From Candidatus Methylomirabilota bacterium (GTDB lineage Bacteria > Methylomirabilota > Methylomirabilia > Rokubacteriales > CSP1-6), in assembly GCA_046726415.1 (NCBI GenBank), contig JBKPAK010000099.1, positions 1-16,013 of the forward strand: a stretch of 16,013 bases of DNA. Reading direction: 5' to 3'. The notes beneath the pieces are model-generated. The model saw nothing but the letters and a program-made list of their open reading frames with translations. It had not been told where the DNA came from and searched no databases. Position 1 is the first letter of the stretch, and the number at the start of each line of letters is the position of its first letter. Positions 5,596 to 11,569 of this stretch are shown one piece after another. The position numbers and the translations under genes were made by a program.

Positions 5596-5640
5596 GCGCA
5601 CCGTACGAGTCTCGGAAAGACTCCTAGCGCACCATACAAG
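5579..5640. repeat. 31-bp tandem duplication overlapping the 3' end of the nucleoside hydrolase gene
   Basis: TCTCGGAAAGACTCCTAGCGCACCGTACGAG (5579-5609) and TCTCGGAAAGACTCCTAGCGCACCATACAAG (5610-5640), 29/31 identical. Confidence 0.95.
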
Positions 5641-6544
5641 CCCCGAGGCGCGCGAGGAATACCTCCAGAAAGGCCTCGGCCCGGACGCGCACGGCGATGC
5701 GGCAGTTGGCCGGACCGGCGGCCCTCCGCGTTTGCCCGTCTGGCCCGATGGTCAGGCGCACGGCCTCCCACTCGACGAATTCGCCGACGACGGCCCCCAC
5801 GGCGAGCGGATCGTGGAGGATCATCCCCGCCTCACCTCGCCCGACGTGCGCCGCAAAGGAGCGGGCTGTGAAGGCCGCAATCCGGTCGGCGAGATTCTGG
5901 GGGAGAGCGCGCAGGACGTCCTCCAGACGAGCGTGGGAGAGAACGACCTGACGCGTCGCATCGAGCGGGACCACGTCGATAGGCAGCCCCGCGGCGAGCA
6001 CCCGGGCAGCGGCCTCGGGGTCGACGTGGATGTTGAATTCCGCCGCCGGCGTGACGTTGCCGGGGACGTCCACCGCCCCGCCCATGACAACGACCCGGCC
6101 GACGGTTCGCAACGCCTCGGCATCGCGGCCGAGAGCGAGTGCGAGATTGGTGAGCGGGCCAAGGGCGACGATCGTGAGGCGCGCGCCGAGCCGGCGCGCC
6201 GCCTCTGCGATGACGTCAGTCGCGCTGGCCGGGGCGAGGCGCGCGGCGGGCGCTGGCCAGCCCGGCACATCGCCGAGGCCATCGTCACCGTGGTAGTGCG
6301 TGGCGGTCACCAGCGCGCGCGAGAGCGGGTACGCGGCCCCCGCGGCCACGGTGGGAATCGGCGTGGGTCGGCAGAGGCTGACGAGCCGCTGCGCGTTGAT
6401 CGTCGCCGCATCGAGGGGAACATTGCCGGCGACCGCGGTGAGAGCTTGCACGGTAATCTCGGGCGATCCCCAGGCCAGCAAGAGCGCCAGCGCGTCGTCC
6501 ACCCCTGGGTCAGTATCGATGAGGACTGGCTTCGCGTGCCCCAT
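5624..6544 (-). CDS. Inosine/uridine-preferring nucleoside hydrolase family protein
   Basis: N-terminal DTDPGVDD motif, [25 protein letters not shown]...[25 protein letters not shown]. Strong SD (GAGGAGG) upstream of ATG 6544. Confidence 0.95.
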
Positions 6545-6567
6545 GAATCCCGCCTCCTCCTCGCGCC

Positions 6568-6590
6568 ATCGTAAGCGTGCATGGTAGGAT
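6568..6590. promoter_or_regulatory. Back-to-back -10 elements: TACGAT (minus, 6568-6573) for the hydrolase and TGgTAGGAT (plus, 6582-6590) for the selenoprotein
   Basis: TAnnnT hexamers on both strands of a 72-bp divergent intergenic region, each upstream of an SD-like purine run. Confidence 0.4.
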
Positions 6591-6616
6591 ACGCGGGACA
6601 TTCCCAGGGGGAAGCC

Positions 6617-6844
6617 ATGGACATCGAGATCCTGTACTGCGCCGAGTGAAACTACCTCCCACAGGCCTCCAGTTTGCAGGCCGCCATCAAGAGTCGCTAC
6701 GGCATCACCGCCACCCTTCGCATGGGAGCGGGCGGAATCTTCGAGGTGTTCATCGACGGGAAGAGTGTCTACTCGAATCAGACGACGTATCGCTTCCCGA
6801 CCGACGAGGAGATCTTCGAGCAGATCGACGCGGCTAAGCAGTAA
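6617..6844 (+). CDS. SelT/SelW/SelH (Rdx) family selenoprotein, 75 aa, Sec at TGA 6647-6649
   Basis: SD-like AGGGGGA, then [75 protein letters not shown]. It has the Rdx hallmarks I-x-YCxxU, GxFEV and RFP. The frame stays open 64 codons past the TGA. Confidence 0.93.
6664..6682 (+). promoter_or_regulatory. Putative bacterial SECIS hairpin
   Basis: GGCCT (6664-6668) pairs with AGGCC (6678-6682), with inner C-G and A-U pairs and an apical GUU loop (6672-6674) about 22 nt 3' of the UGA. This fits bacterial SECIS geometry with a G in the apical loop. Confidence 0.7.
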
Positions 6845-8138
6845 GGCTCCGCCCCATCTCTTCCCGAACCGACGCGGCCAGGCTTCGCTCGAGCTCGTCG
6901 CGGAACGCGGGGTGGGCGACGGCGAGCAGGGCAGCTGCCCGCTCGCTCGTCCCCCGTCCCCGCAGCCGAGCCGCCCCGTATTCCGTCACCACCGCGTCAA
7001 CGACGAAGCGCGGGGTGGTCACCGCCGATCCCCGCGCCAGTTGCGGCACGATCCGAGACACCGTCCCCTCTCGCCCGGTCGAAGGCAGGGCGATGATGCT
7101 CGCCCCGTCGCGCGAGCGCGAGGCTCCGAGGACGAAATCGAATTGGCCACCGATGCCCGCCACCTGACGCGGCCCGAGGCTTTCGGCGTTGACCTGGCCG
7201 GTCAGATCGATCTCCAGCGCGGAGTTGATGGACACGAAGCGGTCGAGCTGGGCGACGATGTCTGGGTCGTGGACGAAGGCCGAGGAATCCATGTTCACTG
7301 TGGGATTGTCGTGGACGAACTCGAAGAGCCGACGGGTGCCCATCGCTTCGGCGATGTCCATGCGGCCCCGGTGGAACGGCTTGCGCGCGCCGGTGACCAC
7401 CCCGCGCTCGAGGAGGGGCAGCACCGGATCGACGAGAAGTGAGTGGATGGCCAGGTCGCGATGATCGATGAGAGCCTCCAGCACGGCTTGGGGGATGGCC
7501 CCAACGCCCACCTGTACGGTGGCTCCGTCGGGAACCAGGCCGGCCACGTGGCGTGCGATGGCCCGCTCGACGTCGCCCACGGGCGATGCCGGATACGGGA
7601 TCAGCGGCTCGTCCACCTCCACCCAGGCGTCGATCTGGCTCCGGTGCAGAAAGGCGTTGCCCCGCGTGCGCGGCATATTCGGATTGACCTGAGCGACGAC
7701 GAGCGGCGCCTCGCGTGCGGCCGGAAGGGCGATCCCCGTGGAGACGCCTAAGCTCACATAGCCTCCGGCGTCGGGCGTCGAGGTGTGGACGAACACGCAG
7801 TCGGGAGCCCAGTATCCGGCCCGACCGAACTGCGCGATGAGCTCGAAATAGCGCAAGGGCGCGAACTCGACCCGGCCCTGACGGCGGGCCTCCTCCAGCC
7901 GCGGCGACATGTGCCAGGTGACATACCGAAGCGTCGCGTGCTCGGGGCGCACAAATGGATAGTTGCCCAGGTGAATGCCGCCCATCAAGGTGAGCCCGGT
8001 CAGGCGCTCCGCCTGCCGACACACTTCGCCGACGAGCGCGGCTGGTTCTCCACAGCCGGGTGGGAACAGCACGCGCATACCCGGCGCGAGGTGACCCACG
8101 GCCTCACTCAGCGAACACCTGACGAAGCCACGAGTCAT
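6834..8138 (-). CDS. Acetyl-CoA hydrolase/transferase family protein (4-hydroxybutyrate CoA-transferase-like)
   Basis: [102 protein letters not shown]. 3' end overlaps the convergent selenoprotein gene by 11 nt. Confidence 0.93.
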
Positions 8139-9313: not shown

Positions 9314-11569
9314 TCAGCCTGGGCGAGGGGTAAAACTCCGCACCGGTCGATACGGCTCAGGCCACGGCAGATCGTAATCCTGCTCATAGGCGGCGTGTCG
9401 CGTCCAGTACGGGTCATAGAGATGCCCGCGGGCCAGCACGCAGAGATCGGCCCGCCCAGCGGCGAGGATGCTGTTGACGTCGGCGTACGAGGCGAGGTTT
9501 CCCACCGTCATGGTCGGAATGCCCGCTTCGAGTCGGATGCGCTCGCTAAATGGGGTCTGGTACAGCCGCCCATAGGCGGGCTGGGCGTAGGGCACCGTCT
9601 GACCCGCTGAGACATCGATGATGTCGCAGCCGTGTGCCTTCAGCATGGCGGCGGTCTGGACGGCCTCCTCGCCCGTGGTCCCACCGCCCGCCCAGTCGCT
9701 GGCCGAGATTCGCACGGATATCGGCTTTTCGGCGGGCCACACGCAGCGCACGGCGTCGAAGATCTCGAGCGGATAGCGCATCCGGTTGGCCAGCGAGCCG
9801 CCGCAGTCGTCGGTCCGCGCGTTGGTGAGCGGCGAGATGAAGCTGGCGAGCAGGTATCCATGGGCAAAGTGCAGCTCGATAAGATCGAAGCCGGCCTCCT
9901 TCGCCATCGCCGTGGCGCGCGCGAAATCCTCACGAACGCGATCCATGTCGGCGCGGTCCATGGCTTTCGGCACCTGGCTCCCAGACCGGTAGGCGATCGG
10001 CGAGGCCGCGATGAGCGGCCAGTTCCCCGATATCAGCGGCTCGTCATCATCGCCTTCCCAGGGCCGCCGGGTCGAGCCCTTGCGCCCGGCGTGGCCGAGC
10101 TGGAGGCCGATCTTTGCGGCGGTGTACGCGTGAACGAAGTCGACGATGCGCCGCCAGGCCACCACGTGCTCCGGCTTGTACATCCCAGTACAGCCGGGAC
10201 TGATGCGTCCGTCTCGGCTGACGTCGGTCATTTCGGCCATGACCAGACCGGCTCCACCCACGGCGCGGCTGCCCAGGTGAACGAGATGCCACTCCCCCGG
10301 TGTGCCATCCTCCGCGGAGTACTGACACATGGGCGAGACCACGATGCGGTTGACCAGCACCAGCGAGCGCAGCCGGAATGGCGTGAACATGGGCGGCGGA
10401 GTGGGCAGGGGGATCTGCCGGCCGCTCTGGAGGGAAGCCTGCTCGGCGAACCATCGATTCACCGTCTCCACGAGCTTGGGGTCGCGCTGCTTGAAGTTCT
10501 CGTGGGTGACGCGCAGGCTGCGCGTGAGAAGGCTGAACGCGAATTGGATCGGTTCTAGGCGCCCGTCGTATCGCTCGGTCTCCTCGAACCAGCGCAGGCT
10601 CACCTCGGCCGCCCGCTGAAGGCTCTCCACCTCGGGCCGCCGCTCCGCCTCGTACGCCTGCAGCGCCGTCTGCACGTCGCGGTGCCATCTGAGCGCCCGG
10701 CTCAGCGCGATCGCGTCCTCCATGGCCAGCTTGGTGCCCGACCCGATGGAGAAGTGGGCGGTGTGAGCGGCGTCGCCCACGAGGACGAGGTTCTGCCAGT
10801 GCCAGCGCGCGTTCCGCACGGTGGGGAAGCTTCGCCACAGGGAGCGGTTGTTGAGGATGCGATGGCCGGCCAGCTCCTGGGCGAAGAGTCGCTCGGCGTA
10901 GGCGACGGTGTCGTCCTCCGTGGCTCGGTCCAACCCCGCCCGCCGCCAGGTGGTCTCGGTCGACTCGAGGATGAACGTCGAGGCGCCTTCCTGGTAGCGG
11001 TAGGCGTGGACGCGCCAGAGCCCGTGCTCGTTTTCCTTGAAGAGAAACGTGAAGGCCCGATAGGGAAACGTGGTGCCCAGCCAGACGAATCGACTCGGAC
11101 GCCAGTCGAGGCTTGGCCCGAAGTGCCGGGCGTAGCGCGTGCGCACCGCGCTGTTGACGCCGTCGGCGGCCACGATCAGATCGGCGTCGGCGAACGGTCC
11201 CAGGTCGTCCACCTCGGTCTGAAACTGGAAATGTACGCCCAGGGCCTCGCCGCGCCGCCGGAGAATATCGAGCAGCGCTTGGCGCGACAGTCCAGCGAAC
11301 CCGTGGCCGGTCGAGGTGAGCACCTGCCCCTGGTAGTGGATGTCGATGCTGTCCCAGTGGGCGAAGCTTGCCGTCATGTCCCGGTAGGTTTCGCCGTCGG
11401 CATCCGCGAAGTGACCCAGGGTGGCGTCCGAGAACACCACCCCGAAACCGAAGGTATCGTCGGCGCGATTGCGCTCGAGGACCGTGACATCGTGGCCGGG
11501 ATCGGCTTTCTTGATAAGGATGGCCAGGTATAGCCCGGCCGGCCCTCCGCCGACGGTGACCAGCTTCAT
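9314..11569 (-). CDS. abmA: Bifunctional salicylyl-CoA 5-hydroxylase / 2-aminobenzoyl-CoA monooxygenase-reductase (FAD monooxygenase + Old Yellow Enzyme-type domain)
   Basis: N-domain GGGPAG, DTFGFGVVFSD, AADGVNS, GDAAHTAHFSIGSGTKLAMED; C-domain NRIVVSPMCQYSA, QLGHAGRKGS, ELHFAHGYLL. The 751-aa fusion architecture is typical of the AbmA/SdgC family. Confidence 0.9.
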   Translation of the reverse strand: MKLVTVGGGPAGLYLAILIKKADPGHDVTVLERNRADDTFGFGVVFSDATLGHFADADGETYRDMTASFAHWDSIDIHYQGQVLTSTGHGFAGLSRQALLDILRRRGEALGVHFQFQTEVDDLGPFADADLIVAADGVNSAVRTRYARHFGPSLDWRPSRFVWLGTTFPYRAFTFLFKENEHGLWRVHAYRYQEGASTFILESTETTWRRAGLDRATEDDTVAYAERLFAQELAGHRILNNRSLWRSFPTVRNARWHWQNLVLVGDAAHTAHFSIGSGTKLAMEDAIALSRALRWHRDVQTALQAYEAERRPEVESLQRAAEVSLRWFEETERYDGRLEPIQFAFSLLTRSLRVTHENFKQRDPKLVETVNRWFAEQASLQSGRQIPLPTPPPMFTPFRLRSLVLVNRIVVSPMCQYSAEDGTPGEWHLVHLGSRAVGGAGLVMAEMTDVSRDGRISPGCTGMYKPEHVVAWRRIVDFVHAYTAAKIGLQLGHAGRKGSTRRPWEGDDDEPLISGNWPLIAASPIAYRSGSQVPKAMDRADMDRVREDFARATAMAKEAGFDLIELHFAHGYLLASFISPLTNARTDDCGGSLANRMRYPLEIFDAVRCVWPAEKPISVRISASDWAGGGTTGEEAVQTAAMLKAHGCDIIDVSAGQTVPYAQPAYGRLYQTPFSERIRLEAGIPTMTVGNLASYADVNSILAAGRADLCVLARGHLYDPYWTRHAAYEQDYDLPWPEPYRPVRSFTPRPG

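Follow-up and report, generated by a model that had tools for sequence, protein, structure and literature searches.

The DNA analysed here (the window) is a stretch of 16,013 nucleotides from a Candidatus Methylomirabilota bacterium. Between a divergent nucleoside hydrolase gene and a convergent CoA-transferase-family gene, it contains a small forward-strand gene at 6617–6844, which is predicted to encode a SelW-like selenoprotein of the Rdx family. The gene has 75 codons, one of which is UGA (selenocysteine, Sec), and is terminated by TAA at 6842–6844. A purine-rich, Shine-Dalgarno-like stretch (AGGGGGAAG, 6606–6614) was read directly on the same strand upstream of the ATG start codon (6617–6619). 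From this ATG the frame runs through Y-C-A-E-U and then through 64 more sense codons, including those of the GGIFEV and RFP motifs, to the TAA. The first residue of the CxxU motif (Cys8) is encoded by TGC at 6638–6640, and the in-frame TGA at 6647–6649 occupies residue 11, where it is predicted to be read as Sec. A SECIS-type hairpin lies just downstream on the same strand, at 6664–6682. The original prediction had named all of these elements, from the Shine-Dalgarno sequence and the ATG to the YCAE-TGA stretch, the 64 sense codons with their two motifs and the hairpin, and each of them was found at its place in the sequence. A scan of 6400–7000 for promoters and terminators found none.

On the 5' side, the nucleoside hydrolase gene (IU_nuc_hydro, Pfam PF01156, 257.1 bits) occupies 5624–6544 on the reverse strand. 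Its ORF in the ORF list extends to 6601 (5624–6601), a start that was rejected. The Pfam match begins at residue 26 of the long ORF. The ORF is probably over-extended, and the true start is probably the ATG at 6544, which is preceded by GAGGAGGAGG and leaves an intergenic region of 72 nt (6545–6616) before the SelW-like gene. On the 3' side, a gene of the acetyl-CoA hydrolase/CoA-transferase family (Pfam PF13336 and PF02550) occupies 6834–8138 on the reverse strand, and it shares 11 nt, with its stop among them, with the 3' end of the SelW-like gene. The best NCBIfam match of this neighbour, butyryl-CoA:acetate CoA-transferase, scored 245.9 bits, far under the cut-off of 674.8. Also on the reverse strand, 9314–11569 encodes a 751-aa protein in which an FAD monooxygenase is fused to an OYE-type flavin oxidoreductase, and this protein scored 1129.8 bits against NF006101, 'bifunctional salicylyl-CoA 5-hydroxylase/oxidoreductase' (cut-off 1078). 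Together with the nearby CoA-transferase and SDR genes, the fusion may belong to an aromatic-acyl-CoA pathway. At 1–2781 on the forward strand, a GspD-type secretin gene (Secretin, three Secretin_N stretches and an N0 domain) continues beyond the 5' edge of the window.

In the public gene calls, the full SelW-like gene is replaced by a 56-aa ORF (6674–6844, forward strand), the product of which is P0005. This ORF starts at a TTG inside the hairpin loop, has no CxxU site and is the sole ORF of this frame in the ORF list under table 11. The relatives have been treated in the same way. Among the best 120 of 357 database relatives, 116 are 55–63 aa long, and the four short relatives that were fetched all begin 3' of the TGA. 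Only four entries of the best 120 are full-length, and they give the codon as W (P0001–P0003) or G (P0004). The active site is thus absent from the databases because the relatives, as judged from the best 120 of 357, are either truncated or have the codon read as W or G. At NCBI the truncated ORFs are labelled 'Rdx family protein' of Rokubacteria/Methylomirabilota MAGs, and at JGI those of the ortholog group carry the label 'selT/selW/selH-like putative selenoprotein'. Gene callers had been expected to miss the gene or to call it a pseudogene. It is neither skipped nor called a pseudogene; the ORF called from TTG 6674 lacks the CxxU site. We conclude that 6617–6844 is a real gene, the public annotation of which is N-terminally truncated.

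With the TGA translated as U, the readthrough product matched the Rdx model of Pfam (PF10262) with 62.1 bits (cut-off 22.6), covering profile positions 2–73 of 74, and the NCBIfam model TIGR02174 CXXU_selWTH with 55.1 bits (cut-off 34.2). Membership in the Rdx family, as originally proposed, is supported by both scores. The top-scoring NCBIfam model was NF041051 SelTWH_Campy, an equivalog of 70 positions and thus similar to the product in its short length. The score of 78.1 bits is below its cut-off of 88, therefore the product is not a member of this equivalog. An AlphaFold2 model built from a 30-sequence alignment (A2) reached a pLDDT of 96 and a pTM of 0.83. Its topology is b1-a1-b2-b3-b4-a2 (strands 3–8, 33–37, 42–46 and 49–53, helices 14–28 and 63–74), and this predicted model has the thioredoxin-like fold of the Rdx/SelT-SelW-SelH family. 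The CxxU motif is located between b1 and a1. C8, which is invariant in A2, and U11 follow the strand 3–8, and U stands in the column of the second Cys of the CxxC/CxxU motif.

When the predicted model was compared with the PDB by Foldseek, the top matches were 2fa8, 2obk, 2oka, 2p0g, 2ojl, 3dex, 2ljk and mouse SelW (2npb). Bacterial SelW-related structures came first (TMq 0.79–0.91, rmsd 1.1–1.7 Å), MIEN1 and mouse SelW came next, and ordinary thioredoxins ranked well below them. A sequence search of the PDB at E < 0.01 returned Rdx-family entries only (2ljk, 2fa8, 3dex, 2oka, 2p0g, 2ojl and 2obk), with 2ljk as the best match (E = 1.4e-6). In the two alignments shown, those with 2ljk (YCEPC) and 2fa8 (YCTQC), the U falls in the column of the second CxxC cysteine. 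It is also aligned with a Cys, encoded by TGC, of the Cys-containing paralogue in the same genome (L060, CTQC), so the expectation of Cys or U at the TGA column held in all three. The solved bacterial proteins 2fa8 (Atu0228), 2obk, 2oka, 2p0g, 2ojl and 3dex share the fold and the place of the redox motif with the product. However, they carry CxxC rather than CxxU, are about 100–108 aa long as deposited compared with 75 aa here, and are only 21–28% identical to it. The mammalian proteins SelW (2npb) and MIEN1/C17orf37 (2ljk) likewise belong to the Rdx family and share the CxxU/CxxC position, and the Foldseek probability was 1.00 for both.

Of 41 genomes searched from the genus, family and order, 36 had an orthologue. 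Exactly one TGA was found in 35 of the 36, and in the remaining orthologue, that of G023, the contig ends within the gene and only residues 25–74 are covered. The DNA was read for 35 orthologous genes, the window's own included. All 35 have TGC-N6-TGA, with TGC at Cys8 and TGA at residue 11. The ten codons before the UGA, which encode strand b1 of the predicted fold, are conserved at the protein level (I, Y, C and E) and vary synonymously (TAC in 29 and TAT in 6; GAG in 24 and GAA in 11), and the two 'x' positions of CxxU show the codon behaviour expected of them. Therefore, selection acts on one continuous frame. A Shine-Dalgarno-like stretch and the ATG before codon 1 are also conserved in the orthologous loci; by eye, a GGAGG-like purine-rich stretch lies at most 20 nt before the start codon in most of the 20 printed loci.

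The hairpin is formed by pairing of GGCCU (6664–6668) with AGGCC (6678–6682), continued by the inner pairs CA (6670–6671) with UG (6675–6676) after one C.C mismatch, and it is closed by the apical loop GUU (6672–6674). The stem begins 15 nt after the UGA and the loop begins 22 nt after the A of the UGA. The UGA is thus closely followed by a stem-loop, the small apical loop of which includes a G. In the SECIS of the E. coli fdhF type, the hairpin is part of the ORF, follows the UGA directly, has G/U in the apical loop and is read by SelB. The hairpin of the SelW-like gene resembles the fdhF element in placement and in its G/U loop, but differs from it in sequence and stem length.

The folding energy of the hairpin region (MFE −11.7 kcal/mol) does not stand out from that of its shuffles (mean −12.3 kcal/mol, z = 0.22), and an equal or better fold was obtained for 115 of the 200 shuffles. 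Among the 35 orthologues, 97.1% of the 245 pair cells are paired, compared with 14–55% when the 3' partner is slid by 1–3 columns; the observed percentage was reached by 40 of 500 column shuffles. No compensatory double change was found in the 7 pairs of the 35 sequences, and three changes were one-sided, from A-U to G-U. Covariation is not visible because the element is too conserved. RNAalifold preferred another, weaker stem. No match in the window attained the gathering score of an Rfam family, and with relaxed thresholds only a chance match to Sphinx_1 (E = 1.3) was obtained in 6600–6760. In three orthologues (L029, L033 and L034), which have Q-E instead of Q-A (GCC to GAG), the two outer pairs are broken (alignment A1, columns 21–42). 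By eye, these three could instead pair GCCUCC with GGAGGC in a shifted stem of six pairs, which would enclose a larger loop, and a switch of the SECIS register is possible there.

A different kind of constraint was observed in the codons. In the 35-orthologue codon alignment, codons +5 to +11 (Q A S S L Q A, 6662–6682, forward strand) form a synonymously frozen block. A single codon is used at +6 (GCC, 35/35), +7 (TCC, 35/35), +8 (AGT, 32/32) and +11 (GCC, 32/32), counted in the sequences carrying the residue, and codon +9 is TTG in 26 of 35 and CTG or CTC in the other 9. Several of these codons are infrequent within their families in the genes of the window: TCC accounts for 16% and AGT for 7% of Ser, and TTG for 5% of Leu. 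Outside +5 to +11, the 8 other invariant columns of 4- or 6-fold degeneracy use 2–4 codons each. The depth of metagenome contigs also peaks at 6654–6695, which we read as contigs of relatives matching there at 90% or more. There is good evidence in these alignments that an RNA element of SECIS type is under selection over 6664–6682, and this hairpin would be bound by SelB. The GGCCT/AGGCC stem, the GUU loop and the distance of about 22 nt given in the original prediction were all found, and the synonymous sites over this SECIS-like hairpin are frozen; folding energy and compensatory changes did not speak for it.

If the TGA were a true stop, the product would be the ORF of 56–62 aa, and the ten codons before the TGA would either encode a leader peptide or have no coding role. 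The public calls treat the 116 short relatives in just this way, and the hairpin alone is not significant. However, the truncated product would have neither strand b1 nor any part of the CxxU site, both of which belong to the fold that was predicted with a pLDDT of 96. The upstream codons are in frame, and they are conserved as protein with synonymous variation, behind a conserved Shine-Dalgarno-like stretch and ATG. Moreover, the TTG at which translation would have to start is CTG or CTC in the 9 of 35 orthologues noted above. We regard termination at the TGA as very unlikely.

The search was extended to 251 genomes of the phylum, and an orthologue was found in 153 of them (the count includes the unpublished G235). 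All 150 of 150 among the matches listed have one TGA. Four more matches of the phylum scan are G026 and G037, each with one TGA in the search of genus, family and order, G023, which is cut by the contig end, and G138, which was unseen. The orthologue was present in 132 of 158 genomes of family f1, 18 of 21 of f4, 1 of 1 of f5, 1 of 1 of f3 and 0 of 1 of f2. It is limited to families of one order, and none of the 68 genomes in other families has it. The UGA is thus conserved in the manner of a bacterial selenoprotein gene, both in the 35 genes read as DNA and among the matches listed. Unlike the hairpin taken alone, this conservation and that of the synonymous sites over the hairpin go far beyond what chance would give.

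This constancy bears on what the codon is read as. Ambiguity between Sec and Cys at UGA is known from other systems, and it raises the general possibility that the UGA is recoded often or mainly as Cys, or passed by near-cognate readthrough, according to the selenium supply, in which case the protein would be partly CxxC in soil. In contrast, a Cys codon occupies the site in 0 of 150 among the matches listed. That no switch to a Cys codon is seen there argues that Sec itself is selected, and frequent decoding as Cys appears extremely unlikely.

The organism had been predicted to possess the Sec machinery, and selA, selB, selC and selD were all found in the genome, each above its cut-off. selA (591.9 bits), selB (374.2 bits, matching the whole model) and the tRNA-Sec gene (71 bits) are clustered on one contig (C313), and selD (335.6 bits) is on another (C223). 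The anticodon of the tRNA was determined by ARAGORN as TCA, i.e. tRNA-Sec(UCA). In the phylum, selA was above the cut-off in 215 of 251 genomes (G074 and G115 in this count are unpublished). Among the 153 genomes with the TGA gene, at least 16 had no selA match at E ≤ 1e-60. Five of these were rechecked; three have selA fragments at contig ends, and two of the three have selB alongside. Neither selA nor selB was found in G009 (98% complete) and G192 (92% complete), which keep the TGA gene, and this is probably a gap of binning or assembly. The genomes without a selA match are weak counter-evidence because the assemblies are drafts.

Two further genes of this genome contain an in-frame TGA. In selD (locus L011, position 1531), the TGA is in SCAGUASK and is followed by an 8-pair hairpin with the loop GAUC; selenophosphate synthetase is therefore itself a selenoprotein here. 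The other belongs to the Rdx genes, of which the genome has three: the SelW-like gene, a Sec form with CVVU (C264) and a Cys form with CTQC (C321). The Sec form (C264:9810–9992, locus L059) has an in-frame TGA in CVVU and a 12-pair hairpin with the loop GUG, which is at the same distance from the UGA as that of the SelW-like gene; the TGA is likewise present in its orthologues from G016 and G005. The hairpins of this paralogue and of selD are stronger, with a G-first apical loop 25–26 nt from the U of the UGA, and a G-first loop at this distance is common to all three UGA-containing genes, the SelW-like gene included. The 12 matches to PF00384 (molybdopterin oxidoreductases) in the genome have no stop inside the matched part, which says little because the Sec site of a formate dehydrogenase may fall outside that part.

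An alternative genetic code (code 4 or 25) would turn the motif into CxxW or CxxG, as the four full-length database entries have it, with W in P0001–P0003 and G in P0004. In contrast, TGA ends 4 of the 8 Pfam-supported ORFs in the window, one of them the 751-aa protein, which matches NF006101 end to end, and TGA is also used as the stop in 3 of 20 orthologous SelW-like genes. An alternative genetic code is therefore excluded. The full Sec machinery in the genome and the Cys, rather than Trp or Gly, at the aligned position of the homologues argue in the same direction, and reading of the TGA as Trp or Gly is left with practically no likelihood.

In the soil-metagenome contigs of three runs (X1, X3 and X7) that cover 6647–6649, no other letter is listed at the TGA, and the only differences listed in 6500–6900 of these contigs are 6655 C>T and 6691 G>A. 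Of the 23 runs listed, none is an RNA run. A pseudogene, or a sequencing or assembly error for TGC or TGT, has nothing in its favour beyond the bare in-frame stop and is scarcely conceivable against these contigs, the TGA in the identical codon position in all 35 genes read and in 150 of 150 among the matches listed, and the purifying selection on both halves of the gene; the concern that the TGA might be such an error is thus answered.

We therefore return to the SelW-like selenoprotein. With a probability of roughly 0.93, the gene encodes a 75-residue SelW-like (Rdx-family) protein of thioredoxin fold with the active site Cys8-x-x-Sec11, in which Sec is inserted by way of SelB and the hairpin. 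As judged from sequence comparison, the in-frame TGA most likely encodes Sec. In the proposed mechanism, the UGA at 6647–6649 would be decoded by Sec-tRNA(Sec), which SelB would deliver after binding the mRNA hairpin at 6664–6682 with its G-first apical loop, and the selA, selB, selC and selD genes of the genome would provide the decoding machinery. We infer that Sec is actually inserted at this UGA. The product is most likely a thiol/selenol oxidoreductase, and its redox chemistry would most likely consist in cycling between a selenolate-thiol form and a Cys8-Sec11 selenenylsulfide.

The surroundings of the gene are conserved to different extents. All 20 close loci have the hydrolase gene next to the SelW-like gene, as do 5 of the 10 more distant ones. 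The CoA-transferase-family gene is the tail-to-tail neighbour at all 20 close loci and at 9 of the 10 more distant loci within the order, and this pairing may be plain inherited synteny. A functional tie between the selenoprotein and this gene seems very unlikely. If the pairing were selected, a bacterial SelW-like protein would for the first time be placed in the context of a substrate or pathway, possibly as a dedicated redox partner of the CoA-transferase, or the pairing might reflect mutual regulation through the overlapping 3' transcripts.

Genes of this kind have been described before. According to the sections of two papers used here, no selenoprotein family in the Sargasso Sea data was more abundant than the bacterial SelW-like CxxU proteins, with 48 genes, in which the UGA is directly followed by a stem-loop whose small apical loop has a G (Zhang, Fomenko & Gladyshev 2005, PMC1088965), and Cys homologues of SelW-like proteins are few or absent where Sec is used (Zhang et al. 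2006, PMC1794560). As far as those sections describe them, the published bacterial proteins share with the present one the small Rdx/SelW type with CxxU, the UGA with a stem-loop directly behind it and a G in the small apical loop, and the Sec-decoding host. The difference is one of lineage and not of kind: the present ortholog group is found in soil bacteria, and its named relatives are Rokubacteria/Methylomirabilota MAGs. The eukaryotic SelW genes, in the same source, have their SECIS in the 3'-UTR (PMC1088965), unlike the SECIS-type element here, which is within the coding sequence, 15 nt after the UGA. In the titles and abstract openings of the literature pairing Rokubacteria with selenocysteine, no paper on this gene was found.

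Since the family and the recoding have been known for about twenty years, the result is a correction of a gene model and not a discovery. The protein is an ordinary member of a known family with textbook decoding, and it adds nothing on selenoproteins or on recoding as such. Its practical value is in annotation, as the public protein sets of this lineage hold almost only N-terminally truncated products. For the organism itself, the gene would be a case, read from its sequence, of Sec decoding being used by a soil bacterium whose phylum is known chiefly through metagenomes.
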